Shown here piece after piece: positions 13,758-44,492 of a DNA stretch of 64,000 bases; position 1 is the first letter of the stretch, and every line of letters begins with the position of its first letter. Position numbers and translations under genes: made by a program. This stretch comes from a virus. Lineage: Duplodnaviria; Caudoviricetes. A model generated the notes under the pieces. That model saw only the letters and a program-made list of their open reading frames with translations. It made no database searches and was not told the DNA's origin. The DNA lies in IMG/VR virus record IMGVR_UViG_3300047551_002158, one strand, 5' to 3'.

Positions 13758-13783
13758 ATACCTAAAAAGTATTTTTGCGTAAA

Positions 13784-28321: not shown

Positions 28322-28344
28322 ATACCTAAAAAGTATTATCAAAA

Positions 28345-28803
28345 ATGGACGCACAAGATTTTCGTAGTCTTCAAGAAGCATATATGGAAGTTGTTATGAA
28401 TGAAGCAAAGAAACCTTTTCCATTTGAAAAGGTTTCTAATAAATCAAAGTCCAAAGAAAAACAAAAATTACAATTAAAAAAAGATGTTGAGGGTGGTTTA
28501 ATTTCTCATAAAAGAGCAACTCCATTAATTTCTAAACTTGTTAATCAAAAAGTTAAAATGGGTATGGTTTGGGCAAAAGAAAGAGAAAAGAAAAAAGAAG
28601 ATGATAATTCAAAAAGGTCTTCAACATTCTATAGAAAAGATAAGCATTTATCAAAAATGACTAAAACTCAAAGAGAACAAGTAGATATTTACGACATCAT
28701 CCTTTCACATTTACTTGATGAAGGATATGCTGAAACACCAGAAGCAGCAGAAGCAATTATGGTGAATATGAGTGAAGAGTGGAGACAGAGTATTATTGGT
28801 TGA
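28345..28803 (+). CDS. Constant-ends/variable-core late protein, copy A
   Basis: MDAQDFRSLQEAY...YDIILSHLLDEGYAETPEAAEAIMVNMSEEW; TATAAATA 28317-28324; paralog of 43581-44123. Confidence 0.8.
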   Translation: MDAQDFRSLQEAYMEVVMNEAKKPFPFEKVSNKSKSKEKQKLQLKKDVEGGLISHKRATPLISKLVNQKVKMGMVWAKEREKKKEDDNSKRSSTFYRKDKHLSKMTKTQREQVDIYDIILSHLLDEGYAETPEAAEAIMVNMSEEWRQSIIG

Positions 28804-28836
28804 TTACCAAAATAAAATTCAATCCAACCACTCACC

Positions 28837-28865
28837 TTGATTTTGGTGAGTGGTTTTGTTATAAT
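28837..28865 (+). promoter_or_regulatory. Sigma70-type promoter for the gp41 C-fragment, overlapping a terminator-like hairpin
   Basis: TTGATT-N17-TATAAT; AACCACTCACC/GGTGAGTGGTT inverted repeat. Confidence 0.7.
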
Positions 28866-28884
28866 GTGAGAAGGTAAGAACTCT

Positions 28885-29307
28885 ATGATGCTGAAAAAAA
28901 TTCTAAAAATTGAAGAACTTGATGAAAGAGAAATGATAGATATTGAAGTATCAGGAAATCACTTGTTCTATGCGAATGCTATTCTCACACATAATAGTAG
29001 TTCTGATGTTGAACTTACTGATACTTCTGAATCCTTTGGTCTCCCTGCTACTGCTGATCTTATGTTTGCCCTTATTAGCACTGAAGACTTGGAGGGGCTT
29101 GGTCAGATATTGGTGAAACAACTGAAGAACCGTTATAATGATCCTACCATTCATAAGCGTTTTGTGATTGGTATTGACCGCGCTAAAATGCGTCTTTATG
29201 ATTGCGAACAATCTGCTCAAAATGATATCCTTGACAATGGAAAGGATGAAGAGTATGATTACGAAGAAAAGAAACCTAAAAAATCATTTGAAGGATTTAA
29301 ATTCTAA
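28885..29307 (+). CDS. gp41: Split-intein IntC (37 aa, 28885-28995) fused to the gp41 C-fragment (103 aa)
   Basis: MMLKKILKIEE...LFYANAILTHN then Ser+1 (SSSDV); ESFGLPATAD; KQLKNRY. Confidence 0.95.
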   Translation: MMLKKILKIEELDEREMIDIEVSGNHLFYANAILTHNSSSDVELTDTSESFGLPATADLMFALISTEDLEGLGQILVKQLKNRYNDPTIHKRFVIGIDRAKMRLYDCEQSAQNDILDNGKDEEYDYEEKKPKKSFEGFKF

Positions 29308-29308
29308 T

Positions 29309-29722
29309 ATGACTCAAGTTATTGATACAAACAAATATATTGAATTCGTTCGTCAAACTACAAGTCCTGCGAGCAGTGATTTTGCTCAACTGCTTTCTCG
29401 TCTGACTGAACTTGAAGCAAGTGCTGATGCAGATGTTCCCCGCCTTCTCACTGCTGCTCTTGGTATGAGTGCTGAAGCAGGAGAGTTTACTGAAGTTGTT
29501 AAGAAAATTATTCTTCAGGGCAAACCTTATAATGAAGAGAATGCTTTTCACCTGAAGCGAGAACTTGGAGACATCTGTTGGTATCTGTCTCAAGCATTTA
29601 TGGCACTTGATACTAACTTTGAAGAGATTCTCAAGATGAACTATGAGAAACTGAGTGCTCGTTATCCTGAAGGAACCTTTGATGTTTATCGTTCTGAAAA
29701 TCGTGTGGAGGGAGACCTGTGA
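29309..29722 (+). CDS. mazG: MazG-like nucleotide pyrophosphohydrolase
   Basis: GMSAEAGEF; RELGDICWY; NYEKLSARYP. Confidence 0.92.
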   Translation: MTQVIDTNKYIEFVRQTTSPASSDFAQLLSRLTELEASADADVPRLLTAALGMSAEAGEFTEVVKKIILQGKPYNEENAFHLKRELGDICWYLSQAFMALDTNFEEILKMNYEKLSARYPEGTFDVYRSENRVEGDL

Positions 29723-29904
29723 GTAAAGAAAAACAAGTAACAATTAAAATGGATGCTCGTTCAGCAGCAGCAGTTCGTCAAGTCCTCTTTGATTCTCAAA
29801 AAGGATATACTTATGATGAAGTAAGTGTTCCTCCTCGTATTGCTGATATTCGTGGAGTTATTCAGCAACTTGATGATAGTATTGGTGCTGTTGTTGGTGT
29901 TTGA
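29719..29904 (+). CDS. Small hypothetical protein
   Basis: 61-aa ORF coupled to mazG, followed by a terminator-like hairpin. Confidence 0.65.
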   Translation: MSKEKQVTIKMDARSAAAVRQVLFDSQKGYTYDEVSVPPRIADIRGVIQQLDDSIGAVVGV

Positions 29905-29959
29905 CCCTTCTGGGTCTTTTTTTATAAATAAAATTATTAGAACTTTAAATTTATAAAAA

Positions 29960-31315
29960 ATGGATCCTAAAATTCTGAGAGAAGCAGCTCTTGCATATCA
30001 AGCAGTTTATGACCAAGATCTGCGTCAGGAAATTGAAGAGCAGCAAGACTTTGAGAACTGGGTAAATTCACTTGTAGAAGAAGGTTATGACCTGAGTGAG
30101 TATACCTGGGAAGATATGTATGAAACATATATAACAGAAATTGCCGTTCCTCCGAAAGATCCAGCAGCTGCCCGTGCTCAAAGTGCAGCTGCTGCACAAG
30201 GATTTCGCAATATTGGTAATGCAGTTAGAACAGTAGCAAATCCTATGGGTGCTATTGTTAGAGGTATGCAGGATGCAACTACTCGCTATAGGGCAGCAGG
30301 TCCTCGTGATGTTAAAGGTAGACCATTAAATCAAAAACCAACACAAACTCCAGCAAAACCAACATCATCCTCAACTCAATCTCGTTTTTCTGGAGCAAGA
30401 GACGCTGCAGTTGCAAGAGCAAGACAAATTCAAGGTTCTCCTGTAGTTGGATCAAAACCCTCTACAGGTTCTGCAGCAAGACCTTCTGCAGCACCAGCAG
30501 CAAGACCTTCTGGTGGTTCTTCTGCTCCTGCAGCAAGACCAGCAGCATCCGCACCAACTGCAAAACCATCACCAACCCCATCTGCAGCTGCACCAGCAAA
30601 ACCAACTCCAGCACCTTCAACTCCTGCGGCAAAACCATCTGCGATGGATCAGTGGGCAAAGGCAAATCCAAAACTTGCTGCAGCAAAAGCAGAAAGAGAT
30701 AGAACAAGAGGAACAAGTTCAACAACTAATCCTCAAATGGCAGACTTGAAGAGCAAACTTCCTGCGCCAAAATCGCCATCACCAACTACAACATCAACAG
30801 CATTTGCAAAACCAACTCCAGCATTAGGATCATCTTCATCTGCAGTTCAGTCTGGAGGTTCTGCGGCAGCTTCTAGACCATCAACCAATCAAACTGCAAC
30901 TGCATTTTCTAGTCCTTCTTTAGCAAGGTCATCATCTTCAACACCAGCAGCAAAACCAACTCCTATGAAGAAACCTATGGGTTCTTCAAAACCAGGAAGT
31001 CTTGTTTCTGGTTTTGATTTGTTTGATGTTGTAAAGGGATATTTGATTGATGAGGGATTTGCTGAAACTGAACAGGCAGCAATTGCTATTATGGCAAATA
31101 TGAGTGAAGAGTGGAAACTTGAAATTATTAGTGAAATGAGTCCTACAATGCAGAAACTTACTTCAAGACCATCTGTAAACATTGGTGGAGGTAGTTCATC
31201 GGGTTCAAGACCATTAACAACTTCTTCTGCGGCAAAAAAACCTACTACACAATCTAATAGTGGGTTAACTCCAATGCAGAGATTGCAAAGACCAGCAAGT
31301 GGAACTATCCAATAA
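29960..31315 (+). CDS. Pro/Ala/Ser-rich late protein carrying the same acidic modules as copies A and B
   Basis: LVEEGYDLSEYTWEDM; DLFDVVKGYLIDEGFAETEQAAIAIMANMSEEW; low-complexity core. Confidence 0.75.
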   Translation: MDPKILREAALAYQAVYDQDLRQEIEEQQDFENWVNSLVEEGYDLSEYTWEDMYETYITEIAVPPKDPAAARAQSAAAAQGFRNIGNAVRTVANPMGAIVRGMQDATTRYRAAGPRDVKGRPLNQKPTQTPAKPTSSSTQSRFSGARDAAVARARQIQGSPVVGSKPSTGSAARPSAAPAARPSGGSSAPAARPAASAPTAKPSPTPSAAAPAKPTPAPSTPAAKPSAMDQWAKANPKLAAAKAERDRTRGTSSTTNPQMADLKSKLPAPKSPSPTTTSTAFAKPTPALGSSSSAVQSGGSAAASRPSTNQTATAFSSPSLARSSSSTPAAKPTPMKKPMGSSKPGSLVSGFDLFDVVKGYLIDEGFAETEQAAIAIMANMSEEWKLEIISEMSPTMQKLTSRPSVNIGGGSSSGSRPLTTSSAAKKPTTQSNSGLTPMQRLQRPASGTIQ

Positions 31316-31342
31316 ATAATTACGGAAGGTTGCTCTAACCCC

Positions 31343-31371
31343 TTGACTTTTTAGTTGAGGGGTTTTATAAT
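31343..31371 (+). promoter_or_regulatory. Sigma70-type promoter for the solitary tRNA-Ala
   Basis: TTGACT-N17-TATAAT inside an AACCCC/GGGGTT hairpin. Confidence 0.75.
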
Positions 31372-31381
31372 ATCCGAACTT

Positions 31382-31453
31382 GGGGTGTTCGTATAACGGC
31401 TATTACTCTGGATTTGCATTCCAGCAATAAGGATTCGATTTCCTTACACTCCA
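31382..31453 (+). tRNA. tRNA-Ala(UGC), solitary
   Basis: Acceptor GGGGTGT/ACACTCC with G3:U70; anticodon arm CTGGA-TTTGCAT-TCCAG; T arm AAGGA-TTCGATT-TCCTT. Confidence 0.9.
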
Positions 31454-31490
31454 TTATAAAAAGAATAATAAATACTTGAAAAAAAGTATT

Positions 31491-32645
31491 ATGGCAGTAG
31501 ATTACAATAAGGGGGATGTTTCCGAAGCTATCCTTGCCGCTGCTATTGCTGCAAAATTTAAAAAAAGAATTAATGCTTCGGATTTTAAATCAACCAATAT
31601 TCCAATTAAGGTAGGAAATCTTCCACCAATAACAAAATCAGATGTTGAGGAAATACTTTCATTTTTAGTTAAATCTTTTAGATATTCAACTTCAGTTAGA
31701 GATATTGATAGATTAACAAAAACGACAACAAATATATATGACAACATTCAAGTTAGCGTTAGTATTCCGCAAAAAAGTGCTGAATTCTTAAAAAAGAGGT
31801 CGAATTGGTCCAAGGTTTCTAATATATTTACTTCTGCAATAGCAAAGGTAAATACCGATCCAAGATTAAAAGCAAAGGCATATGGTTTATCTGTAAATAA
31901 AAAAAACGATACTATTATTGTAAGAGCAGTTGGTACAGAAGCACAGACAGCAACTAAAGTTGATATTAGGGTTGAGATTATAAATCAAGGACAAAGATTG
32001 CCCAATAAAGCAAATCAAATATCATTAAAGTATGATGCTCCACAATTTGCCCAATCCGTAGGACTTGAGTTTGAAAATTTTGGAAAAATATTTGATGCTC
32101 TTGGATTGAACAATTATTTAAAATATAATCAGATGTTTTTATCTGAAGTTATGGATGTTTATCCTGATATTATGGGTAAGAAGTTTGATAGTAGAGATGC
32201 TATAAAATCTTCTAATGAAGTTAAAGCATTAAAAAAGGTTGCAAAGGAAGTTTTTGCGACTATTGGAGATCAATTAGAAGATAAATTAACTGGGTCTGGA
32301 AGAGAGCAGTTTAGAAGATCTTTGGCAGCATACTGTAAGGAAAGAGCTACAAAAAATGAAAGCGGAGTTGAATTGGTTAAATTTACTACAAGAGGTGGAT
32401 CAGTAACCCAAACATTTGGTCAGTCATTTTTTGAAAATGTTGCAAATGCTGATTTAAAAGTTCATAAGGATCTGGGTGGGAGTGATCCAAAAATATTAAT
32501 ATATTCCGGAACATCTGCGACAAAAACAAATACTTTAATACAGTTTAGATATAGAACTGATGCAACAGCAAAAGATAAAAATGGTAAATATAAAATTTTA
32601 ATGAGGTCTTATGTTGAATCTGGCGATCTTTTGTACAAATTATAA
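31491..32645 (+). CDS. Hypothetical late protein, possible PD-(D/E)xK-like nuclease
   Basis: NKGDVSEAILA; TKVDIRV...QISLK pattern; late TAAATA box upstream. Confidence 0.5.
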   Translation: MAVDYNKGDVSEAILAAAIAAKFKKRINASDFKSTNIPIKVGNLPPITKSDVEEILSFLVKSFRYSTSVRDIDRLTKTTTNIYDNIQVSVSIPQKSAEFLKKRSNWSKVSNIFTSAIAKVNTDPRLKAKAYGLSVNKKNDTIIVRAVGTEAQTATKVDIRVEIINQGQRLPNKANQISLKYDAPQFAQSVGLEFENFGKIFDALGLNNYLKYNQMFLSEVMDVYPDIMGKKFDSRDAIKSSNEVKALKKVAKEVFATIGDQLEDKLTGSGREQFRRSLAAYCKERATKNESGVELVKFTTRGGSVTQTFGQSFFENVANADLKVHKDLGGSDPKILIYSGTSATKTNTLIQFRYRTDATAKDKNGKYKILMRSYVESGDLLYKL

Positions 32646-32682
32646 ATAACTAAAAGACACTTAAGTGCGATAAGATACATTA

Positions 32683-33975
32683 ATGAAAAGTTTTCTAAAT
32701 TTTCTTACTGAAGCAACGCAGTCGCAAGCAGCAATGCAAGCGAAGAAACTTGGTTTAACTGGAGACGGTCATGGCGGATGGATTGACCGTTCTGGTAAAG
32801 TTATTGCAAGAACAGAAAAAGGAAAACTTAAGTATATTGATGGTCGTCAATCAAAAGGTGCAGAGCAACCAGCAGCACAAGCACCTCAAGCAGCACCCGC
32901 TCCTGCTCCTCAACCAGTTGCAACAGCACAAGCACCTATTCCACAACCCCAAGCAGCACCAGGACAAGCACCAGAGGAGCAACCCGCAGAAGAACTACCA
33001 CCACTCACTGTTGTCTTTGGTCGCTTCAATCCACCAACAGTAGGACACGAAAAACTTCTTAAGTCTGCAAAGAGAATTTCTGCTGGTGGAGATATTAAGA
33101 TTTATCCTTCAAGATCCCAAGATCCAAAGAAAAATCCTTTAGATCCTGATATTAAAGTTTCGTATATGAAAAAGATGTTTCCTGAATTTGAGGAAACTAT
33201 TATTAATGATAAAGATATGAAGACTATCTTTGATGTTCTTGTAACTGCTAATGAAGATGGATATACAAGTGTCAATATTGTAGTTGGTTCGGATCGTCAA
33301 GCAGAATTTGAAAATTTAGCACAAAAGTATAATGGAGATCTTTATTCGTTTGATCAAATTCGTGTAATATCTGCTGGAGTAAGAGATGCTGATGCTGAAG
33401 GTGTGGAAGGAATGTCTGCATCCAAGATGAGAAAAGCAGTTCTTGATGATGACTTTGCATCATTCCGTAGAGGAACTCCAAAGACACTTGATGATGGAGA
33501 AACTCAAGCACTCTTTAATGCAGTTCGCCAAGGAATGGGTGCAAAGAAGTCAAAAGTTAAAAAGGAAAGTTATTCCCTATGGGAGATTGCCCCAAAGTAT
33601 GATATGAGAAATCTTCGTGAGAATTATGTAAGAGGAAAAATTTTTAGAATGGGTGATAAAGTTCAAAATCTCAATACTGGATTGATTGGAGAAGTAATGC
33701 GTAGAGGAACTAATCATCTCATTTGTGTAACTGAAGAAGGTTATATGTTTAAGTCTTGGATTAAGGATTTGATGGAATATACTGAAGTTAAGATGGATAG
33801 TATGTATAGATCTCCAGGAAAACCAAATACTCTTGCGGGAACAACAGGGTATTTGAAGTATGCAATGAAACAAACTCCAGGATCTACTTTAGGAAAAGAA
33901 AATCTTCAAGCAGGTGGATCTTCATTTTTAGACAAATTTATAAATAAGTATAAGAAACAAAAAGTACGTGTTTAA
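32683..33975 (+). CDS. Cytidylyltransferase-like (HxGH) nucleotidyltransferase with a capsid-targeting-like leader
   Basis: FGRFNPPTVGH; VVGSDR; MSASKMR; starts MKSFLNFLTEA. Confidence 0.85.
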   Translation: MKSFLNFLTEATQSQAAMQAKKLGLTGDGHGGWIDRSGKVIARTEKGKLKYIDGRQSKGAEQPAAQAPQAAPAPAPQPVATAQAPIPQPQAAPGQAPEEQPAEELPPLTVVFGRFNPPTVGHEKLLKSAKRISAGGDIKIYPSRSQDPKKNPLDPDIKVSYMKKMFPEFEETIINDKDMKTIFDVLVTANEDGYTSVNIVVGSDRQAEFENLAQKYNGDLYSFDQIRVISAGVRDADAEGVEGMSASKMRKAVLDDDFASFRRGTPKTLDDGETQALFNAVRQGMGAKKSKVKKESYSLWEIAPKYDMRNLRENYVRGKIFRMGDKVQNLNTGLIGEVMRRGTNHLICVTEEGYMFKSWIKDLMEYTEVKMDSMYRSPGKPNTLAGTTGYLKYAMKQTPGSTLGKENLQAGGSSFLDKFINKYKKQKVRV

Positions 33976-33980
33976 TTAAG

Positions 33981-35702
33981 ATGTCTATCAATCCTCTAAA
34001 TGATATTTCCAGAGTATATCTGGAGCAGGTTGTCGAATCTTCTCATCTTGAGACTGATATGAAAACGCGTCGTAAGAATAATGAAAAAGCAGTTAAAGAT
34101 ATGAAAAAAACAAAAGCATATCAAGATATGGTTGATGCTGCCAGAAAGAAGTTTGATGAGGCATTAGATCCAGTAGGGCAAGAAGATGCTGATGTTGATA
34201 ATGATGGTAAGAAAAATACAAAGTCCGATAAGTATCTCCTAAAGCGTAGAGCAGCAATATCAAAAGCAATTACTCATAAAGAGGCATTAGATCCTGTTGG
34301 TAAGGAAGATGATGATATTGATAATGATGGAATTCCAAATACTAAATCTGATAAGTATCTAAAGCATCGTAGAAAAGTTCGCGGAAAAGTTATTGCTAAA
34401 GAAGGTTTCTCAAACTGGAGAGAGGATCTGATTGAAGTTACCAGCAAACTTGAAGGAAAGGATGGTAAGGAACCAAAAATTGTAGAAAAATCTGTTGATA
34501 ACAAAATAAATATCAATCCAAATCTTGATCTTGGTGAAGCAGTAGAAAATCTTGGTGGAACTCTGCTTGAAATGGTTGAGATTGAAAACTTTGAAGGAGT
34601 TCTTGATGAATTTACTGAATCTGAAATCTTCTTACTTTCTGATCAATTAATTGAACAAGTAGTGGAAGAATTTTTCTATGAGTGTATTGAAGAAGGTTAT
34701 GATATTTTAGAAGTAGAAAATAGACTTATAGAGTCCCTTGAAATTTCTTGTTCTATTCTGACAGAAGAAGAAAGTATTAAAGAAAGTAGACTTGAAAAAA
34801 TTAAAGGTGCTGTAAAGAGAGTTGGTAAAGCACTTGCTCATGGAGTTGGATATGCTGCTGGTGCTGCTGTAAGAGGTATAAAAGCAGCAGGTAGAGAGGT
34901 GAAATCTGGATATGAGAGAGGTAGAAGTGGTTCTTCTCAGGGCAGAACTCAAACTTCATCTTCATCCACATCTGATGGTGGAGATTCTGGTGAAAAGAAA
35001 CCTGGACTTCTTTCTAGAATTGGATCTAAGTTAAAGAGAGGTCTTGCAAAGACTGCAAGAGCAGTTTCCAGAGGAGCAAGAAATGTTGCACGCAGAGTTG
35101 AAGGTGGCGAGAAAAAAGCAACTCCCAAAGTAGCACCTAAAAAAGCAGAAAAACCAGAAGATCCTTGGTCAGGTAGTGCAACAACTCCACCAAAAGCAAA
35201 AGCAAAAACCAAAAAGGCAGCAGCACCAAAAGCAAAATCACCTACCGCAGCAAAACCAAAAGCAAAAAGAAAGTCTAAGTTAGATGATTTACTTGCTAGT
35301 GTAAGAAGCGAAGAAGCACAACTTGATGAAATTGCTCCATTAGTTGCTGGTGGTCTTGCTATAGGTGGAGCAGCTCTTGCTGGAAAGGCTATTGCAGATA
35401 AAATGGAGCAGAGTAGACAGAAAGTAACTTCACCATCTACTGCTAAACCAACTCCATCTTCATCATTATCAGATAAAATGAGAGCAAGAAATCAGCAAAT
35501 GAGAGAATTGATGAATTCTTATGAATTGGAAGGAAATCAAATTGATGAAAAAACACTAAGTGATGCTGAAACGAAAAAGAAGGAAGAAATTGTAAAGTCA
35601 ATGAAAGATAAAGCATCAGACTTTGAAAAGAGATATCCTGGTCGTGGTAAAGAAGTAATGTATGCTACTGCCACTAAGATGGCTAAAAAAATTGCAAAAT
35701 AA
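33981..35702 (+). CDS. Large modular late protein with alternating acidic and basic blocks
   Basis: Two 41-aa EALDPVGxEDxDxDNDG repeats; Lys/Ala-rich segment; many L/I-x-E motifs. Confidence 0.7.
   Translation: MSINPLNDISRVYLEQVVESSHLETDMKTRRKNNEKAVKDMKKTKAYQDMVDAARKKFDEALDPVGQEDADVDNDGKKNTKSDKYLLKRRAAISKAITHKEALDPVGKEDDDIDNDGIPNTKSDKYLKHRRKVRGKVIAKEGFSNWREDLIEVTSKLEGKDGKEPKIVEKSVDNKININPNLDLGEAVENLGGTLLEMVEIENFEGVLDEFTESEIFLLSDQLIEQVVEEFFYECIEEGYDILEVENRLIESLEISCSILTEEESIKESRLEKIKGAVKRVGKALAHGVGYAAGAAVRGIKAAGREVKSGYERGRSGSSQGRTQTSSSSTSDGGDSGEKKPGLLSRIGSKLKRGLAKTARAVSRGARNVARRVEGGEKKATPKVAPKKAEKPEDPWSGSATTPPKAKAKTKKAAAPKAKSPTAAKPKAKRKSKLDDLLASVRSEEAQLDEIAPLVAGGLAIGGAALAGKAIADKMEQSRQKVTSPSTAKPTPSSSLSDKMRARNQQMRELMNSYELEGNQIDEKTLSDAETKKKEEIVKSMKDKASDFEKRYPGRGKEVMYATATKMAKKIAK
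34158..34403 (+). repeat. Tandem 123-nt (41-aa) duplication with DxDNDG motif
   Basis: EALDPVGQEDADVDNDGKKNTKSDKYL / EALDPVGKEDDDIDNDGIPNTKSDKYL. Confidence 0.85.
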
Positions 35703-35738
35703 AAAATCTAAATAGTTAAAATCATATAGGAGGTTATT

Positions 35739-35930
35739 ATGCTAACAGGTTCTCTATTATTTGCAGTTAAAAGCGGTGCTCTAAGTGCTGTTAATGTTCA
35801 ACTCATTCTTGGCATTCTTCTTGCTGTTTCTGAAGTTCTTGGTGCCGATCCAAGAGTTAAGGCAAATGGAATTATTTCATTTATCTTAGTCCAGGCACAA
35901 AATCTTCTGAAAGCAAAAAAAGAAGGTTGA
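35739..35930 (+). CDS. Small membrane protein
   Basis: GGAGG RBS; hydrophobic helices; basic C-terminus. Confidence 0.65.
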   Translation: MLTGSLLFAVKSGALSAVNVQLILGILLAVSEVLGADPRVKANGIISFILVQAQNLLKAKKEG

Positions 35931-36024
35931 GATAAAATAAAATAAGTTTTATAGAGACTGAGTTTTATCAGTCTCTATTTTTTATAAATAATTTTTAGCA
36001 AATAACTTTTACGGAAGAAAGAAC

Positions 36025-36777
36025 ATGGCACTCTGGGGAAATAATGATGCTAAAGGATCTGGCGGTACAGTATCTTTAAATTATGAGACTCTTGTTGTAA
36101 CTGGATCAGGAACTACCTTTGGTCAAGTTGGAGCAGCAGCAACTGGTGATGTAATTAGATTTGGCGCGGCATTCGGTGTGCATTATGGTGATGCCGTAAT
36201 TGTTGGAATTGCAAGTACTACAGTGCTCTCAATTGCATCGACTGCTGGACTAAGTGGAGATGCAATTTCTGGAGTTCAATTCCAGATTAGCGAATCTCCA
36301 AAATTTGCTGTTCTTGACAGCCATTGGAATCAGTCAACTGGTTCTGTAACAGAGACTTATAACTTCTTACAGACTACTGCAACTTACACTGCAGGTGTTG
36401 GAACAGATAAAATTTTGGTTGGAAGTGTTGTTGGAGTAAAAACTGGAGATACTCTAACCGGAGTTAATACGACTGGCGTTGTTGCTTCTATTGGAACAAC
36501 TTCTGTTTCTCTTGCATCCACTATTGGATCTGCTATTACTGCGGGAGATATTATTAAATTCTCAAGAGTAACTGGTGGACATGAATCCGTTGTGGTTGGA
36601 GTCAGTAGTATTTCTGTTGGAGCTGCTGCATCCACTAAGTTTGAATTAACTCACTCTGGGTGGGTTGGTATTATGACATACACAGATAGTGAAGGTAATC
36701 TGAGAGTTAAGAGTGAAGTTCTTGTTGCAATGTCTGGAATCACGACAGGAAATACTGATTATCCACCTGCACTATAA
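36025..36777 (+). CDS. Probable virion structural protein
   Basis: MALWG start; Gly/Thr/Val-rich; HSGWVG...RVKSEVLVAMS; late promoter. Confidence 0.7.
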   Translation: MALWGNNDAKGSGGTVSLNYETLVVTGSGTTFGQVGAAATGDVIRFGAAFGVHYGDAVIVGIASTTVLSIASTAGLSGDAISGVQFQISESPKFAVLDSHWNQSTGSVTETYNFLQTTATYTAGVGTDKILVGSVVGVKTGDTLTGVNTTGVVASIGTTSVSLASTIGSAITAGDIIKFSRVTGGHESVVVGVSSISVGAAASTKFELTHSGWVGIMTYTDSEGNLRVKSEVLVAMSGITTGNTDYPPAL

Positions 36778-36780
36778 TGT

Positions 36781-37173
36781 ATGATCTTTAATGAATTGAA
36801 TGAGGATAATTTCCTCATGTTTGCTATTAAACATTATGAAAATCCTCAGGCAGTTACTAAAGAAGACTTTGAGAAGGATTTAAATCACTTTAAGTATATT
36901 AAAAGATTATTGAAAAGATATAAAAGAGAAGGTGAATTAAAAACTCATCTTCTCTTGAATCATTTTATTATTCTTTATAATATTTTTGGAGAAGCAACAA
37001 CTCCAATGTTATTTTTTAAAATTGAAAAAGATCTTTGGTCCTCTGTAAAATCATTTATAATATTTCTTGGTAGATTTCCAGAATATCCTAAAACATTAAT
37101 ACACGATATTCCTGTTGATATAAATTGCCTATCCGAACTCTATAAAATCTACAATGGAAAAGAAGAAGATTGA
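36781..37173 (+). CDS. Conserved T4-like hypothetical protein
   Basis: EDFEKDLNHFKYIKRLL; LNHFIILYNIFG. Confidence 0.75.
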   Translation: MIFNELNEDNFLMFAIKHYENPQAVTKEDFEKDLNHFKYIKRLLKRYKREGELKTHLLLNHFIILYNIFGEATTPMLFFKIEKDLWSSVKSFIIFLGRFPEYPKTLIHDIPVDINCLSELYKIYNGKEED

Positions 37174-37387
37174 TAAAGTCATTGAAGCATTTCGTAATTA
37201 TATTAATTTAAAAGAAGAGGGAATGGTCACGGGAAGTTCTTCTGGTTCTCCTGGGTTTAGTGGATCTTCTGATCCGAAAGGTCCAACCGCAGGATTTGAT
37301 CCTGTAATGGGATTGGGAAAAAGAAAAGGTCCGCAGATAAAACTTCCACCTGGTTCCCGTAGAAGGTGGATGAAACCAAAAAACTAA
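37154..37387 (+). CDS. Small hypothetical protein
   Basis: LKEE motif; GPTAGFDPV. Confidence 0.65.
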   Translation: MEKKKIDKVIEAFRNYINLKEEGMVTGSSSGSPGFSGSSDPKGPTAGFDPVMGLGKRKGPQIKLPPGSRRRWMKPKN

Positions 37388-37452
37388 ATAATATTAAAAC
37401 TACTTGAGTTATTTGTTTCCAGTAGTGTAAGAAATAATAACTCACACGGAAA

Positions 37453-37857
37453 ATGTTTAATTCAAATACTTCTGCTGATACTAAAATTGCTGTATTAGAA
37501 GAGCGTCTATCTTCTTATGAACTTATGTTAAAAAAGATAGATGAAGCAATTCAAATTATGGGGAAGACGAGTCAAAATATTAGCAAGATGCTTGCCGTTC
37601 ACGAAGAAAGAATAGAGCAGTGTCACAAAGCTGATGATTATGTTAGCAGACTGATTGAAGAATTGAAAATTGAGAATAAAGATTCGCACGAAGCAGTGGC
37701 AGAAAGAATTGAAAAAGTTGAAAATAAATTGGAAGAATTTGTAAAATTTCGTTGGATAATAGTTGGAGTTTTTGCAGTTATATCTTTTGGACTATCGCAA
37801 TCACACGTAGTTGTTGATTTATTAACTCCAGATACTCAGCAACAAGTAATAAAATAA
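37453..37857 (+). CDS. Coiled-coil protein with a C-terminal transmembrane segment
   Basis: Heptad pattern; FRWIIVGVFAVISFGL. Confidence 0.7.
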   Translation: MFNSNTSADTKIAVLEERLSSYELMLKKIDEAIQIMGKTSQNISKMLAVHEERIEQCHKADDYVSRLIEELKIENKDSHEAVAERIEKVENKLEEFVKFRWIIVGVFAVISFGLSQSHVVVDLLTPDTQQQVIK

Positions 37858-38027
37858 ATAATTGAGTGTTGGCACAGGATGCCAATGAAAACTAAAAATC
37901 AAGCAACACTCTACTCTCTTCAGAGAATTACAAATTCGGTCGTAAAATGGACAGGGATTATGACCGCATTGTGTCTTGACAAAACGCGATAGACTGGTAG
38001 AATAAGTACACTCATTAAGGTTTGGTT

Positions 38028-39023
38028 ATGGATTTTGTTGATGTTAAATACATCAATTTGATTTCTGGAAGATTTCATAAGTTCAAAAAAATAAAACATA
38101 ATCTTTATAATTTTCGTTGCCCAATCTGTGGAGATTCGCAAAAGAATAAAAATAAGGCAAGGGGATATCTCTATCAAGTAAAAAACAATACAAACTTTAA
38201 GTGTCATAATTGTGGTATCAATATATCTTTTAATAACTTTTTAAAACAAATTGATATTACGATTCATAAGCAATATACCTTTGAAAAATTTAAAGAAGGT
38301 CATAGTGGTAAAAACTTTACTGCAGAAGAACCTCAGTTTAATTTTCAGAAACCAGACTTTTTCACAAAACGTGAAAATTCGGAAAATGTGAAAAAGTTGG
38401 GTTTACCGAAAGCGTTAACAAATCCTAACGCAAAAAAGTATCTGGAAAGTAGAAAATTAAATCCAGATAACTATTATTACACCGAAAAATTTAAAGAGTG
38501 GACTAATTCTCTTCGACCAACATTCGACAATACAAATCAAGATGAACCAAGGATTATTATTCCTTTGTTTTATCAAAATAAGTTAGTCGGATTTCAGGGA
38601 AGAGCACTTGGTCCCAGTAAGGTAAAGTACATTACTATAATGCTTGATGATGACGCACCAAAAATTTATGGTCTTGATGAAGTCAAAAAAAGTGAAACTG
38701 TCTACATCACAGAAGGTCCCTTTGACTCAACATTCATTCGCAACGCGATTGCTCTTTGTGGAGCTGATGGCGATCTTGATAAGTGGAATATTGGCAGGCG
38801 TGTTTGGATTTATGATAACGAACCACGTAATGCAGAAATCACCAACAGGATCGCAAAGCGTATTGATGAAGGAGAACAAGTTGTAATTTGGCCTTCTACA
38901 ATATCCGAAAAGGATATTAATGATATGGTTTTATCTGGACTGAATGTTCAAGATGTGATAGAATCAAATACTTACTCTGGTTTAGAAGCAAAACTTAAAT
39001 TTACTACCTGGAAGAAAATATGA
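38028..39023 (+). CDS. gp61: DNA primase (T4 gp61)
   Basis: CPICGDS and CHNCG zinc finger; TEGPFDS; YDNE TOPRIM; KDIND. Confidence 0.97.
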   Translation: MDFVDVKYINLISGRFHKFKKIKHNLYNFRCPICGDSQKNKNKARGYLYQVKNNTNFKCHNCGINISFNNFLKQIDITIHKQYTFEKFKEGHSGKNFTAEEPQFNFQKPDFFTKRENSENVKKLGLPKALTNPNAKKYLESRKLNPDNYYYTEKFKEWTNSLRPTFDNTNQDEPRIIIPLFYQNKLVGFQGRALGPSKVKYITIMLDDDAPKIYGLDEVKKSETVYITEGPFDSTFIRNAIALCGADGDLDKWNIGRRVWIYDNEPRNAEITNRIAKRIDEGEQVVIWPSTISEKDINDMVLSGLNVQDVIESNTYSGLEAKLKFTTWKKI

Positions 39024-41317
39024 GCAACGGTACAAAAGTTAAAAAGCGTGATGGTCGAATTGAGTCTCTTGACCTGGAAAAGATGCACTTGATGGTTGAA
39101 GAGGCGTGTAAGGGTCTTGCAGGCGTCTCTGCGAGTCAAGTTGAGATGACATCTGGTATTCAGTTTTATGATGGTATCACCACTGCAGAGATTCAGGAGA
39201 TTCTGATTCGATCTGCTTCTGACCTGATCGATCTTGATCACCCTAATTATCAGTTTGTTGCTGCCCGTCTGCTTCTTTTTGCAGTTCGTAAGCAACTTTA
39301 TGGAAAGATGAAAGAACTTCCTCATCTTGAGCAGCACATTTATAACTGTGTTAATCAGGAAGTTTATGATAATGATATTTACAGCAAGTACTCAAAGGAA
39401 GAGATTGATAAGGCAAACTCTTTTATTGATCACGATAGAGATTATCTCTTTACTTACGCTGGACTTCGCCAGGTTGTTGATAAGTATTTGGTTCAGGATC
39501 GCAGTTCAGGTGGAGTATATGAAACTCCGCAGTTCATGTATATGATGATTGCTCTGACTATCTTTGCAGAGTATCCAAAAGAAACAAGAATGTCATATGT
39601 CAAGAGGTATTATGACGCAATCTCCAAACACAAAATCAACATCCCTACCCCCATTATGGCAGGCGTTAGGACACCACTTAGACAATTCGCTAGCTGTGTT
39701 CTTGTTGATGTTGATGACACCCTCGATAGCATCTTTAGTTCTGATATGGCTATTGGCAGATACGTTGCACAAAGGGCGGGAATCGGTATCAACGCAGGTC
39801 GCATCAGGGGTATCAACAGCAAAATCAGAGGTGGAGAAGTTCAACATACAGGTGTTGTCCCTTTCCTCAAAAAGTTTGAAGCAACTGTCCGATGCTGCAC
39901 TCAGAATGGCATCCGTGGTGGATCAGCAACTGTCCACTTCCCAATCTGGCACCAAGAAATAGAAGACATTCTTGTTCTTAAAAACAACAAGGGAACGGAA
40001 GATAATCGTGTCCGTAAACTTGATTATTCTATCCAAATTAGTAAGTTGTTTTATGAAAGATTTATTCAAGACGGTGAGATCACGCTTTTCTCTCCACATG
40101 ATGTACCTGGACTTTATGATTCTTTCGGACTCCCTGAGTTTGACGATCTCTATGTTTCGTATGAAAAAGATTCGTCCATTCCGAAAAAAACTATTAAAGC
40201 ACAAGAACTCATCCTTAACCTTCTTAAAGAACGTGCGGAAACAGGTCGTATCTACCTTATGAATATTGACCATTGCAATTCTCACTCTTCATTTAAGGAT
40301 AAAGTTAATATGAGCAATCTCTGTCAAGAGATTACTCTTCCTACTGATCCTATTCAGCATATTGATGATACTCATGGAGAAATTGCTCTGTGTATTCTTT
40401 CTGCCATTAACGTGGGCAAAGTTAAATCTGATGAAGAACTTGAGGATCTTTGTGATCTTTCTGTTCGTGGTTTGGATGAGTTGATCGACTATCAGAAATA
40501 CCCCGTAGAGGCGGCAGAAATCGCCACGAAGGCACGTCGTTCTCTTGGCATAGGATTTATTGGTCTTGCTCACTATTTGGCAAAACTTGGTTTTGATTAT
40601 GATTCTCAAGAGGCGTGGGATGCTGTTCATGGACTTTCAGAATCATTCCAATATTATCTTTTGAAAGCATCTAATCAACTTGCTAAAGAAAAGGGATATT
40701 GTGAATACTTTGGTCGTACCAAGTATGCTGATGGTATTCTTCCAATTGACACTTACAAAAAAGATGTAGACGAAATTTCATCTATCACACTTCAACATGA
40801 TTGGGAAAATCTTAGAGCATCCATCTTGGCTCACGGTCTCAGGCACTCAACATTGTCCGCACAGATGCCATCGGAGAGTAGTTCCGTTGTGTCAAATGCG
40901 ACAAATGGAATCGAACCTCCCCGTGGTTTCCTGTCCGTTAAGAAATCGAAGAAGGGCCCTCTCAAGCAGATTGTCCCTCAATATCAAACTCTTAAGAACA
41001 ACTATACGCTTCTTTGGGATATGGAGTCCAATCGTGGTTACATTAATATTGTTGCTTTGATGCAGAAGTTCTTTGATCAAGCGATTTCTGGAAACTGGTC
41101 TTATAATCCAGAAAATTATCAAGATAATGAAGTTCCTGTATCAGTAATGGCAAATGACTTTTTGACTACATACAAGTACGGGTGGAAAACTTCTTATTAC
41201 CAAAACACTTATGATATTAAGACTGATGAGGTAGTAGAAGAAAAACCCAATCTTCAAGATTTGTTAAGTGAGTTAAGTTCAGTAGAGGAGGGAGAGTGTG
41301 AATCCTGTGCAGTTTAA
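39020..41317 (+). CDS. nrdA: Class Ia ribonucleotide reductase alpha subunit
   Basis: ATP cone VKKRDG; ASCVL; SNLCQEI; AQMPSESSS; YY pair; ends ECESCAV. Confidence 0.98.
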   Translation: MSNGTKVKKRDGRIESLDLEKMHLMVEEACKGLAGVSASQVEMTSGIQFYDGITTAEIQEILIRSASDLIDLDHPNYQFVAARLLLFAVRKQLYGKMKELPHLEQHIYNCVNQEVYDNDIYSKYSKEEIDKANSFIDHDRDYLFTYAGLRQVVDKYLVQDRSSGGVYETPQFMYMMIALTIFAEYPKETRMSYVKRYYDAISKHKINIPTPIMAGVRTPLRQFASCVLVDVDDTLDSIFSSDMAIGRYVAQRAGIGINAGRIRGINSKIRGGEVQHTGVVPFLKKFEATVRCCTQNGIRGGSATVHFPIWHQEIEDILVLKNNKGTEDNRVRKLDYSIQISKLFYERFIQDGEITLFSPHDVPGLYDSFGLPEFDDLYVSYEKDSSIPKKTIKAQELILNLLKERAETGRIYLMNIDHCNSHSSFKDKVNMSNLCQEITLPTDPIQHIDDTHGEIALCILSAINVGKVKSDEELEDLCDLSVRGLDELIDYQKYPVEAAEIATKARRSLGIGFIGLAHYLAKLGFDYDSQEAWDAVHGLSESFQYYLLKASNQLAKEKGYCEYFGRTKYADGILPIDTYKKDVDEISSITLQHDWENLRASILAHGLRHSTLSAQMPSESSSVVSNATNGIEPPRGFLSVKKSKKGPLKQIVPQYQTLKNNYTLLWDMESNRGYINIVALMQKFFDQAISGNWSYNPENYQDNEVPVSVMANDFLTTYKYGWKTSYYQNTYDIKTDEVVEEKPNLQDLLSELSSVEEGECESCAV

Positions 41318-42488
41318 GATTTCTTCAACGGAAGAACCCCAAACAAATATTAAAGGAATGACCGTTTTTAACACTGAAAAAGTTGATACCAAAAAACAAC
41401 CAATGTTTTTTGGAAAACCTCTTGGAGTTCAAAGGTATGATTCATACAAATATCCAATCTTCGACAAACTGACTACTCAACAACTTGGATACTTCTGGAG
41501 ACCCGAAGAGGTGTCTCTCCAGAAGGATCGTGGCGATTATCAGACACTTCGCCCAGAGCAAAAGCATATCTATACTTCTAATCTGAAGTATCAGATTATG
41601 CTTGATTCTGTTCAGGGTCGTGGTCCTGGCATGGCATTTATTCCATACTGTTCACTTCCTGAACTGGAAGCGTGTATGGAAGTGTGGGGATTTATGGAAA
41701 TGATTCACTCACGCTCATACACATACATCATCAAAAACGTTTATTCAGATCCATCTGAGGTGTTTGATACTATCATTGGAGATGAGCGTATTCTGGAACG
41801 TGCTAAGAGTGTTACAGAGTCTTATGATGACTTTATTCAATCAGCACAACAATATGGTGTGTCCGATACTTGGATGCATAGACTTGAGGGAGTATCATAC
41901 GCAAAGGAATCACTCAACGATGTCAAACGAAAACTGTACAGAGCAGTCGCAAACGTTAATATTCTTGAAGGTATTCGCTTCTACGTTAGTTTTGCTTGTA
42001 GTTTCGCCTTTGGTGAACTTAAGCTTATGGAAGGATCCGCTAAAATCATTAGTCTCATCGCAAGAGACGAAAACCAACACTTAGCACTTACTCAGAACAT
42101 TCTGAATAAGTGGAAAGAAGGTGATGATCCTGAAATGAAGCAGATTGCAAAAGAAGAAGAAGAGTGGGTCTATAAAATGTTTGATCGTGCTGTAAACGAA
42201 GAGAAGAAATGGGCAGATTACCTGTTCAAAGATGGCAGCATGATTGGACTGAATGATAAACTTCTTCAGCAATATGTTGAATGGATTGCTAACCGTAGAC
42301 TGAAAGCAATAGGACTAAAACCACAGTATGATATTTCAGCAAACAATAATCCACTTCCTTGGACACAACACTGGATTTCTTCCAAAGGTCTTCAGGTTGC
42401 TCCGCAGCAAACTCAAGTGCAGTCTTATGTGGTTGGTGGAATAAAACAAGATGTCAAAAAAGACACATTTAGTGGTTTTAAACTTTAA
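41298..42488 (+). CDS. nrdB: Class Ia ribonucleotide reductase beta subunit with an atypical Gln-rich C-terminal tail
   Basis: FWRPEE; EMIHSRSY; ILEGIRFY; RDENQH; tail QVAPQQTQVQSY. Confidence 0.97.
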   Translation: MNPVQFKISSTEEPQTNIKGMTVFNTEKVDTKKQPMFFGKPLGVQRYDSYKYPIFDKLTTQQLGYFWRPEEVSLQKDRGDYQTLRPEQKHIYTSNLKYQIMLDSVQGRGPGMAFIPYCSLPELEACMEVWGFMEMIHSRSYTYIIKNVYSDPSEVFDTIIGDERILERAKSVTESYDDFIQSAQQYGVSDTWMHRLEGVSYAKESLNDVKRKLYRAVANVNILEGIRFYVSFACSFAFGELKLMEGSAKIISLIARDENQHLALTQNILNKWKEGDDPEMKQIAKEEEEWVYKMFDRAVNEEKKWADYLFKDGSMIGLNDKLLQQYVEWIANRRLKAIGLKPQYDISANNNPLPWTQHWISSKGLQVAPQQTQVQSYVVGGIKQDVKKDTFSGFKL

Positions 42489-42548
42489 TTGACTTTAAGA
42501 CTGAAATAGTGTATTATATAAATAATAATAGGTAAGTTCAGTCTTAAA

Positions 42549-43163
42549 ATGAATAATTATATTCTTTACTATTACTTAAGGGAGGACTTTAGTTCTCCCT
42601 TTTATGTTGGTTATGGAAGACCAAGAAGAATTAATTCCAGACACTCCAGGAGAAATGGTGCTGAAATATTACCACCAAGAGAAAGAAGATGGATTGTAAA
42701 ATCTGGATTAACTAAAGAAGAAGCAATAGAACTTGAGATAAAACATATAGCACTCTGGAAAAGAGAATGTGATGGTGGGGTTTTGTTAAATCAAAATCTT
42801 GGTGGTGAAGGAAAACCTGGAGGACAGAGAACTAAAGGATTTAGTGGAAGGAAACATAGTGAAGAAGCAAAGAAAAGAATAAGTGAAAAAGCTGCTGGCA
42901 AGAATAATCCAAGATATGGTGTTAAATTATCACAAGAGACAAGAAATAAGATAAGTCAAAACAGAACACCAAAGTTTGGTAAAGATAATCCAAACTCTAA
43001 AACTTGGAAGATTGTTTCTCCAGAAAATAAAGAGTACATTATTACTGGAGCATTAAAAGAGTTTTGTAAGTCTCAAAATATTTCATATGCAACGATGCAC
43101 GCAGCAATTCTTTACGATAGAAAAGGGCCAAGAAGAAATGGATGGAGTATTGAGAAAGTTTAG
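42549..43163 (+). CDS. Free-standing GIY-YIG-like homing endonuclease after nrdB
   Basis: YILYYYL...FYVGYG; LLNQNLGGEG; HSEEAKKRIS NUMOD3; TATAAATA 42517-42524. Confidence 0.85.
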   Translation: MNNYILYYYLREDFSSPFYVGYGRPRRINSRHSRRNGAEILPPRERRWIVKSGLTKEEAIELEIKHIALWKRECDGGVLLNQNLGGEGKPGGQRTKGFSGRKHSEEAKKRISEKAAGKNNPRYGVKLSQETRNKISQNRTPKFGKDNPNSKTWKIVSPENKEYIITGALKEFCKSQNISYATMHAAILYDRKGPRRNGWSIEKV

Positions 43164-43551
43164 AATATCACTACCAGAAGATGAGTGTGTGATAAAACTT
43201 CAGGAGTATTGTAAGTTCTCTCATACTTTGTTAAAAGTTCCTGTAGTTTCTAAACCTTTATGTGCCGACGCAAACTGCCACAATAATGTTAATCATTATG
43301 TGAATACTTATGGTGGAGAAAAGATAAGTGGATATTATCTAATCACCGATGTTGATGATGAAACTTATGGATGTGCGATATATCATAGTATTTGGAAAAA
43401 TACTTACGGAGATTTGATAGATATAACTCCATTTGATGATGGTAGAGAATATAATATGTTCTCTGTGCTAGATGCTATAGATTATTACTCTGGAGTTGCT
43501 TATGATGGAAAAGTTTATAGAATATTAGAACCAGGACTTAATGTTGTTTAA
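43138..43551 (+). CDS. Cys-His-Asp triad protein (papain/transglutaminase-like), candidate Gln deamidase
   Basis: NCHNNV (C47), HSIW (H83), DITP (D95); overlaps the endonuclease 3' end by 26 nt. Confidence 0.55.
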   Translation: MDGVLRKFRISLPEDECVIKLQEYCKFSHTLLKVPVVSKPLCADANCHNNVNHYVNTYGGEKISGYYLITDVDDETYGCAIYHSIWKNTYGDLIDITPFDDGREYNMFSVLDAIDYYSGVAYDGKVYRILEPGLNVV

Positions 43552-43580
43552 ATTATAAATAACTAAAAAGTATTTGTAAA

Positions 43581-44123
43581 ATGAACGCACAAGATTTTCG
43601 TAGTCTTCAAGAAGCATATTTGGAAGTTTATAATGACTTGGATGAAGGTGCTTCGGAAGACGTTGCTGCTAGATCCGAAAAACTTGCAAAACAAAGAAAG
43701 GGGCAAACACCTCAAAGAAAAGCAATGTATCAGGGACTTGCACTTAAAGCAAGAATTCGTGCTTCTGGAGGAAATCCTGGAGATAAATCACAGGGACATC
43801 CTTTAAGGAGAGCATCTAATAGACCTATTCACCCCCACGATAGTAAGTATGGTAGATCTGGTTTAACTCAATCTAAAAGAGATGAAAGAAGAGATATAGA
43901 TGCCGCAACTCATGGTGAGTATAGTGATGGTCCTGGAACTGTAACAAAAAATCCAAAAAAACTTCGTAAGCAAAAAGCACTTGGAGAACTTGGAGAACAA
44001 GCAGACCTCTACGACATCATTCTCTCACACCTTCTTGATGAAGGATATGCCGAAACACCAGAAGCAGCAGAAGTCATTATGGTTAATATGAGTGAGGAGT
44101 GGAGAAACTCCATTCTTGGTTAA
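43581..44123 (+). CDS. Constant-ends/variable-core late protein, copy B
   Basis: MNAQDFRSLQEAY...YDIILSHLLDEGYAETPEAAEVIMVNMSEEW; TATAAATA 43554-43561. Confidence 0.8.
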   Translation: MNAQDFRSLQEAYLEVYNDLDEGASEDVAARSEKLAKQRKGQTPQRKAMYQGLALKARIRASGGNPGDKSQGHPLRRASNRPIHPHDSKYGRSGLTQSKRDERRDIDAATHGEYSDGPGTVTKNPKKLRKQKALGELGEQADLYDIILSHLLDEGYAETPEAAEVIMVNMSEEWRNSILG

Positions 44124-44330: not shown

Positions 44331-44492
44331 ATGTCTAAAAATCAGTTAACTAAAGATGAATTTAAAGTTCGTGTTTTAAAATTAAAAAATAATCTTTATA
44401 ACGAACACGTCAGACACGATATGGATATGAAAGGACTTGCCCATAAATATCTGAATGAAGTCCTTGATATTATTGATGAGTATAGATATTGA
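44331..44492 (+). CDS. 53-aa hypothetical protein
   Basis: Manual translation MSKNQLTKDEFKVRVLKLK...LAHKYLNEVLDIIDEYRY. Confidence 0.55.
   Translation: MSKNQLTKDEFKVRVLKLKNNLYNEHVRHDMDMKGLAHKYLNEVLDIIDEYRY

Follow-up and report, generated by a model that had tools for sequence, protein, structure and literature searches.

A late cyanomyovirus gene family with conserved coding ends that serve as homology arms for the exchange of unrelated basic cores, and its possible role as head cargo

The 64,000-nt stretch of DNA analysed here, which we call the window (IMG/VR virus record IMGVR_UViG_3300047551_002158), is part of a T4-like cyanomyovirus and carries two short genes, P0001 and P0002, whose ends are nearly identical and whose middles are unrelated. 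Its gene order, running from polymerase, UvsX, gp41 and MazG to primase, NrdA and NrdB, agrees with that of S-SZBM1 and S-SRM01. At the DNA level it matches Synechococcus and Prochlorococcus phages in gp41 alone, at no more than about 80%; no near-identical phage record was found, the closest contig (L001) being only 5 kb long. Copy counts for this phage refer to the window only, L-numbered loci are the IMG/VR contigs and isolate loci with which it was compared, and W marks window coordinates. The features are collected in Table 1.

Both genes share a regulatory context as well as their ends. In each, TATAAATA and then (C/A)CTAAAAAGTATT precede the ATG by 20-27 nt, and TATAAATA is enriched across the window (14 sites against 4.5 expected), so that P0001 and P0002 are predicted to be transcribed late, as T4-type internal proteins are. 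The first 48 nt are identical at 46 of 48 positions and the last 132 nt at 110 of 132, with identity collapsing further upstream; in protein terms, 16 N-terminal residues (P0001 starts MDAQDFRSLQEAYMEV, P0002 MNAQDFRSLQEAYLEV) and about 40 C-terminal residues are near-identical. Between them the cores have no detectable similarity, an alignment of core-only alignments with hhalign giving a probability of 0.3%. The charges are distributed alike in the two proteins, with cores of +15 and +9, N-terminal 16 residues of -3 and -2, and a C-terminal end of -7 in both. The original prediction, made from the letters of the window, had described a shared late promoter, near-identical ends and unrelated Lys/Arg-rich middles, and on each of these counts, coordinates included, it was correct.

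Table 1. Features of the two genes, their surroundings and related proteins; positions are window coordinates unless a locus is named.
Feature	Position	Strand	Remarks
P0001 open reading frame (ORF)	28345-28803	+	
P0001 late promoter (TATAAATA, T4-type) and conserved leader CCTAAAAAGTATT	28317..28344	+	stop codon of upstream GIY-YIG endonuclease lies inside promoter
P0001 5' homology arm	28345..28404	+	codons 1-20, N motif with L-Q-E/A site; L005, L034 and L052 align up to W28392-28404
P0001 variable core	28405..28672	+	Lys-rich, net +15; rare type
P0001 3' homology arm	28673..28803	+	encodes conserved acidic three-helix C domain
Intrinsic terminator 3' of P0001	28826..28855	+	overlaps sigma-70-like promoter 28837-28865
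P0002 ORF	43581-44123	+	
P0002 late promoter and leader	43554..43580	+	
P0002 5' homology arm	43581..43647	+	N motif up to LDE; 5' part aligns only over W43550-43628/43647 to L080, L028, L060, L036, L067 and L023
P0002 variable core	43648..43993	+	net +9; common core type; submotifs such as TKNPKKLRKQKA-GE
P0002 3' homology arm	43994..44123	+	encodes C domain
gp41 (DnaB-like) helicase N part and N-intein half	26275..27606	+	DnaB_C 7e-18; Hint/Intein_splicing weak, residues 350-423
Free-standing GIY-YIG/NUMOD3 homing endonuclease	27656..28321	+	inside fractured gp41, 23 nt upstream of P0001
C-intein half and gp41 C part	28885..29307	+	Intein_splicing profile positions 120-155 at residues 3-37
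Second homing endonuclease (NUMOD3)	42549..43163	+	with ORF154 (43087-43551), indel relative to L006 and L023, which lack the endonuclease
SegE-like GIY-YIG endonuclease	44455..44919	+	PF19835, 1.7e-53; 332 nt 3' of P0002
P0136 with leader	13754..14656	+	ATG 13784; exact P0001/P0002 leader; basic linker, then S-adenosylmethionine (SAM) lyase domain
Cytidylyltransferase/NMNAT-like protein and late promoter	32641..33975	+	gene from 32683; start like a capsid-targeting sequence, MKSFLNFLTE/A; N-terminal extension; similar leader
P0003, third family member, 451 residues	29960-31315	+	own TATAAATA at 29923; phrog_3708 E 1.3e-17
P0004	33981..35702	+	late, partly basic; degenerate N- and C-motif-like segments; positional counterpart of S-SZBM1 virion protein ORF139
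MKTF..F[IL].E/A-type proteins	L002 (1255, 2403), L030 (1217, 3806), L033 (4039), L037 (2837), L062 (127), L078 (7331), S-SZBM1 L086:3974		

The two genes belong to a very large and previously undescribed family, recovered from metagenomes of cyanomyoviruses. P0002 has 3,412 relatives, 99-315 residues long, and a 43-position profile of the C domain collects at least 2,918 clusters at 50% identity, mostly at about 100 bits; since such scores recur across clusters defined at 50% identity, the C domain must be conserved almost perfectly in proteins that are otherwise less than 50% identical. This great diversity supports the idea, raised from two copies, of a diversifying system. The two core types differ widely in abundance, P0001 having only 11 relatives in its core and P0002 thousands. 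The PHROGs family phrog_3708, of unknown function and without a description, matches P0001-P0003 with E values of 8e-6 to 1e-17, and in P0001 and P0002 the match is confined to the region of the C domain. A literature search for the motif found nothing. Among isolates, members occur in only some cyanomyoviruses (S-SRM01, S-CRM01, DSL-LC02/03, B3/B23, ACG-2014f and S-SCSM2R); in S-CREM1 and S-SZBM1 there are relatives that have core motifs, their C motif being no more than degenerate. Family copies are dispersed and number 3-5 in a genome, with up to four in one partial genome of 115-205 kb.

All members share a plan in which a short acidic N-terminal helix (..LQEAY.EV..) is followed by a basic core, 48-225 residues long and for the most part disordered, and then by one or more acidic 40-residue three-helix domains. 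In alignments the N-terminal columns M1, L9, E11, A12, Y13 and V16 are invariant, the C-terminal block reads YDIILSHLLDEGYA.T..AE.IMVNMSEEW, and the middles vary freely; L-Q-E/A at residues 9-12, which fits both the L/I-X-E consensus of the T4 prohead protease and the Glu-Ala bond that it is known to cut, is invariant or nearly so. The cores have a median net charge of +9, are positive in 99% of cases and contain 23% Lys and Arg, against -3 for the N-terminal 16 and -8 for the C-terminal 38 residues, so that the acidic ends offset the basic cores and the whole proteins are roughly neutral; the cores on their own are small and highly basic, as expected of a mature internal protein. They fall into at least four unrelated clusters and many singletons, and the P0001 type, compared with three other large types, gives hhalign probabilities of 0.3-24%, with only a few boundary columns common to any pair. 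Proteins with several units (N-core-C-core-C) are frequent, and one core may stand behind an N motif or behind a C domain. The C domain is likewise portable, being N-terminal in ORF205 of S-SCSM2R and elsewhere internal or present two to three times in one protein.

AlphaFold models the C domain as a three-helix mini-domain (predicted local distance difference test, pLDDT, 89.7), the N-terminal helix with low confidence, and the core at pLDDT 42-67. A fold search with the full P0002 model returned nothing below E 3.9, and one with the C-domain model returned only generic three-helix matches (HMG-box-like, UBA-like and RNA polymerase fragments) with Z of at most 4.9. The LisH dimerisation motif (PF08513; cut-off 21.6) is a lead for the C domain: one divergent member scores 27.1 bits against it, others score 17 bits, and none of 35 canonical C domains match. 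Complex prediction between the N-terminal 30 residues and the C domain scored 0.02 and was not used for or against binding. By eye, the N motif (..QEAYMEV..LDE) resembles the helix that ends the C domain (..EEWRESIVEEVLDE) over a very short segment, and might conceivably be a copy of it.

Why are the ends so constant, down to the nucleotide? In 49 distinct IMG/VR genes whose upstream sequences and cores differ widely, the promoter, the leader and the first 48 bases are almost invariant even at synonymous positions (synonymous-site heterozygosity of the 5' arm about 0.07), with two linked N haplotypes, GAT TTT CGT AGT and GAA CTT CGC AAT. The C block has a specific codon pattern that includes C-ending and G-ending codons, and the arms include non-preferred codons (46-49 genes). 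At the fractured gp41 locus the window, L005, L034 and L052 are collinear, with flanks 79-90% identical from gp41-N through the endonuclease gene to W28392-28404; alignment resumes at W28665-28675 and continues through the C-intein, gp41-C and MazG, and the four contigs carry four different cores. At the locus 3' of nrdB, seven related contigs, again with flanks 79-90% identical, align inside the gene only over W43550-43628/47 and W43994-44105, and at least seven cores occur there.

The history of a single core points the same way. The P0001-type core forms 11 clusters, always in 152-residue proteins, and is found at three unrelated loci, namely in the fractured gp41, between a peptidase-like gene and lysozyme, and at a site 3' of nrdB. 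Across these loci its synonymous divergence (dS) is 0.02-0.08, and that of the attached C arm is 0.38-0.70, with a nonsynonymous divergence (dN) of 0.07-0.08; core and arm therefore have separate histories, and the C arm is under purifying selection as a protein. The ends thus serve as homology arms, and the cores are replaced by recombination both at fixed loci of collinear genomes and between loci, as the original prediction had supposed when it proposed that the like ends could act as recombination arms for core exchange. The breakpoints are also the ones it had named: its Glu-motif boundaries lie within a codon or two of the DNA breakpoints (W28404/28673 and W43628-43647/43994). As putative cleavage sites for the prohead protease gp21, these motifs fare unevenly, LQE/A, LDE/G and LGE fitting L/I-X-E and MNE/A and QRE/Q not fitting it.

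This arrangement recalls the PeSL promoter-terminator cassettes that mediate modular shuffling in the hyperplastic regions of T4-type phages (PMC2839356, PMC4122927). In both, short conserved regulatory DNA around unrelated ORFs is the point of homologous exchange, and upstream of many family genes a terminator hairpin is joined directly to the promoter. Here, however, the promoter is late (TATAAATA) rather than early, and exchange takes place within the coding sequence, towards either end of the gene, so that its products are in-frame chimeric proteins; PeSL cassettes swap whole ORFs.

Homing endonuclease genes are frequent neighbours of the family. Five of the GIY-YIG type lie in the window, within a span of 35 kb (10781-11344, 21567-22145, 27656-28321, 42549-43163 and 44455-44919), four with their own TATAAATA and the fifth with an ATAAATA core just upstream. 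Around P0001 the order is N-intein half, GIY-YIG/NUMOD3 endonuclease, P0001 with its own terminator, a sigma-70-like promoter, which probably restarts transcription of the C-intein and gp41 C half, and C-intein half. By its domain matches gp41 is a fractured gene with split intein halves around an endonuclease gene, and in S-SZBM1 it is uninterrupted. Fractured genes in which a free-standing homing endonuclease gene separates split intein halves have been described (Dassa et al. 2009, PMC2677866); the gap in gp41 differs in that a family gene, complete with promoter and terminator, lies there as well, and in that the endonuclease is of the GIY-YIG/NUMOD3 type. P0002 is flanked by two endonuclease genes, and the alleles of L006 and L023 that lack the upstream one keep the family gene directly after nrdB, so that the indel comprises the endonuclease and ORF154. 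Both copies had been placed inside insertions associated with homing endonucleases; this holds for P0001, in the endonuclease and split-intein insertion of gp41, and P0002 only adjoins such indels. In L006 (290-340) and L023 (2806-2871) a remnant of the C-terminal end of the endonuclease (..NRTGPRKNGWSIKEL) lies directly 5' of the family promoter, which suggests that the endonuclease was lost by deletion.

A homing endonuclease could be more than a neighbour. It is conceivable that exchange is driven mainly by such free-standing enzymes, a break beside or in one arm being mended with a paralogue or a co-infecting genome as template, and a foreign core being copied when the repair is resolved in the far arm. 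GIY-YIG genes lie within 700 nt, on the same strand, of 21 of 49 family genes, compared with a coverage of 4% of the loci by such genes, a count that comes partly from a few syntenic loci rather than from many independent events. They often sit 26-28 nt upstream, and their stop codon then falls within the promoter of the family gene. Of the three loci with the P0001-type core, two adjoin such genes, and in T4 the literature ties endonucleases to the transfer of adjacent DNA (PMC4122927). At the gp41 locus, on the other hand, endonucleases 90-96% identical accompany different cores and so are not co-inherited with them, and more than half of the family genes have no endonuclease nearby. We accordingly regard endonucleases as the main driver as a tentative and somewhat unlikely proposal, one compatible with the explanation we favour below, and consider that they may stimulate core exchange.

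What might the exchanged proteins do? In T4 and the T-even phages, internal proteins are a highly diverse set with only the capsid-targeting sequence (CTS) in common (PMC3012670); the T4 sequence is MKTYQEFIAE (PMC8442874), the payloads behind it are diverse, and the loci are polymorphic among related phages (PMC3012670, PMC9026906, PMC8442874). Like T4 IPI, IPII, IPIII and Alt, the family proteins are small and basic, have a late promoter, and begin with a short conserved segment that ends in L/I-X-E followed by Ala; like the T-even internal proteins they combine extreme payload diversity behind a constant end with polymorphic loci. They differ in an N motif unlike MKTYQEFIAE, in an additional obligatory and sometimes repeated three-helix C domain, in ends conserved at the nucleotide level and in thousands of cores, and their packaging and cleavage are putative. 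The second obligatory domain, the arms within the coding sequence, the late promoter and the scale thus set the family apart from known systems, the theme being that of T4 internal proteins and hyperplastic cassettes.

One protein encoded in the window has a nearly canonical T4 CTS. The first ten residues of P0136, MITYQEFITE, are identical to the T4 sequence at 8 of 10 positions, and its SAM-lyase domain scores 52.7 bits against PF23780 (cut-off 28); a PDB sequence search with P0136 gave no match. P0136 follows a conserved 'peptidase' (phrog_459), and S-SRM01 has at that position the family-type gp231, with an N-like motif and a C domain. P0136 is likely a capsid-delivered anti-restriction enzyme, judging from its start and its domain. 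A second case is the protein resembling cytidylyltransferase or nicotinamide mononucleotide adenylyltransferase (NMNAT), whose orthologue in S-SZBM1, with the start MRFRQFIIE/A, is among the proteins detected in virions; in S-CREM2 virions a cytidylyltransferase and a SAM hydrolase were both detected. The CTS-like start would offer an explanation for the cytidylyltransferase in virions, where the authors only guessed at encapsidation.

Such starts are common beyond the window. Many basic proteins starting MKTF..F[IL].E/A, like the T4 CTS, occur in contigs that also bear family genes (Table 1), and in L002 they are arranged in a tandem array with them, which suggests that the CTS system is in wide use among cyanomyoviruses. 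The two groups also have cores in common: the protein at L002 position 1255 matches the second core of P0079 (E 6e-20), and that at position 2403 matches P0059 (E 1e-8). In S-SZBM1, ORF194 (L088:4253-6376), a basic protein of 707 residues encoded between terS and terL, combines core motifs of the family type with a degenerate C motif, an internal ITYREFIAE/G that resembles a CTS, and a part similar to the C-terminal half of P0136 with its SAM-lyase domain; it has the look of a polyprotein on which the prohead protease would act. Finally, residues 185-290 of P0196, a metagenomic member, form an ADP-ribosyltransferase-like core (..YHGT.., ..GVYS..) between two C domains; it scores 20 bits against Pfam PARP, below the cut-off, 0.91 by Atlas features, and a template modelling (TM) score of about 0.6 to PARP/DUF3990 clusters by Atlas structure. 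As a lead only, weak and concordant, this core may recall the packaged Alt of T4.

Taken together, the late leader common to the family and a CTS-tagged SAM lyase, the CTS starts, the common cores, the L-Q-E/A site and the ADP-ribosyltransferase-like lead make a role like that of T4 internal proteins the best reading. Capsid targeting and processing by gp21 are plausible on these grounds. The family proteins would be made late and taken into the prohead, where a gp21-type protease would probably remove the N-terminal 11 residues at L-Q-E/A; the basic core would stay with the packaged DNA as a counter-ion, act as an injected effector, or both, and the C domain would be a portable module for binding, self-association or charge neutralisation, and not just a pro-piece. 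Homing endonucleases nearby would probably raise the rate of exchange through double-strand breaks beside the arms. The exchange of cores through the arms is shown; the picture as a whole, with functional analogues of T4 internal proteins, and the capsid reading in particular, seem to us evenly poised between right and wrong.

Several observations weigh against it. No virion proteome has yielded a family member, that of S-SZBM1 being the one compared in full: neither the relative ORF194 nor ORF142, which corresponds to P0003 by position, is among the 30 virion proteins identified there, a negative that is weakened because Lys/Arg-rich proteins yield poor tryptic peptides. The N motif of P0001 and P0002 is not a canonical CTS and resembles one only loosely (hydrophobic-Q-E-x-x-x-E), and a canonical CTS occurs in none of 269 C-domain proteins examined, so that the N motif and C domain form an obligatory pair of their own which may do something else. 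L/I-X-E is a very short motif, and P0001 has no such site between core and C domain. The dN/dS of the core is about 0.5 on few substitutions, which does not demonstrate a sequence-specific function, and the endonuclease count owes part of its size to synteny.

The obligatory pairing, in particular, would also suit proteins that are never packaged. These would be late proteins whose conserved ends are the functional parts, either as two binding modules or as one module built from both, and whose basic middle is a flexible polycationic tether that might, for instance, condense or handle phage DNA in replication or packaging or bind a host component, with cores swapping since only their composition is selected. 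The N motif and C domain always occur together and never with a canonical CTS, the ends are under strong purifying selection while the cores are alike only in charge and disorder, the 56 long members searched have no consistent Pfam domain, and the S-SZBM1 relatives are not among the detected virion proteins. Against this, there are cores in common with proteins bearing a T4-type CTS, the leader is also that of the CTS-tagged P0136, and a core of invariant length that recently spread to three loci, as in the 152-residue proteins of the P0001 type, is odd for a spacer. We judge non-packaged proteins to be a possible but unlikely explanation.

The original prediction had gone further than head targeting, proposing that both acidic ends neutralise the core and are both removed by the prohead protease, so that only the core stays in the head and is injected. 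The charge balance of ends and core fits this, as do the L/I-X-E sites of P0002 at LQE/A, LDE/G and LGE/Q, the multi-unit proteins, which resemble polyproteins with ..EVLDE/ junctions, and the CTS-like ITYREFIAE/G that precedes the SAM-lyase-like part of S-SZBM1 ORF194. The evidence does not support a pro-region at the C-terminal end, however. P0001 lacks an L/I-X-E before its C domain, its sole C-side site lying inside helix 1 of a confidently folded domain; the domain also stands at the extreme N-terminus, internally and in repeats, so that it is not simply a C-terminal pro-piece; and no other part of the family is as well conserved, a sign that the domain has its own function. Removal of both ends is thus considerably less probable than the capsid reading set out above, and we think it quite improbable.

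That the cores are instead one homologous region diverged in place, as fast-evolving disordered sequence and without exchange, can be dismissed as highly improbable: disordered basic regions do evolve fast, MAFFT lines up a few Lys/Arg patches, and a nucleotide alignment of the two window cores reaches z = 3.6 against mononucleotide shuffles, probably an effect of composition, but identity falls from 80-90% to nothing at sharp, shared breakpoints, one core type at three loci contrasts in dS with its 3' arm, the same cores turn up at different places in multi-unit proteins and after different N-termini, and hhalign finds no relationship.

Returning to the reading as functional analogues of T4 internal proteins, it can be broadened to a system in which the constant ends would give late expression, head targeting and processing as well as recombination arms, and in which endonuclease-aided swapping of thousands of basic or enzymatic cores, among paralogues and co-infecting phages, would re-assort injected anti-defence proteins; to this we attach a low probability. 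If the proteins are head cargo, they would make up an internal-protein family far larger and more diverse than any other known, with built-in payload exchange, carried by ecologically dominant freshwater and estuarine cyanophages. T4-like capsid-targeting starts would account for the cytidylyltransferase/NMNAT and SAM hydrolase in cyanophage virions, and the N motif and C domain might act as portable packaging tags in cyanophage engineering. The two syntenic loci provide a natural system in which to measure recombination and endonuclease-assisted gene conversion in wild phages, and should the proteins prove not to be head cargo, the family would still be a clear example of cassettes exchanged in frame by way of homology arms in coding DNA.

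The window holds two further proteins related to the family. P0003 starts with a segment like the N motif and contains a degenerate internal copy, a middle rich in Pro, Ala, Ser and Thr, a true C domain (31049-31114) and then about 60 residues; its middle (30200-31000) is a long low-complexity stretch of these four residues, unlike the Lys/Arg-rich cores of short members. A Pfam search of P0001-P0004 gave no match.

Two minor observations concern the leader and the company that family genes keep. A late leader of similar extended type (ATAAATAACTAAAAGT) lies upstream of a DUF7243 protein (290-865), and the extended leader may tag the strongest late promoters rather than one class of genes. In a cyanophage contig, L082, a 62-residue Hc1 gene (9548-9736), similar to chlamydial histone H1 (PF07432), lies two ORFs 3' of a family gene of the P0001 type.

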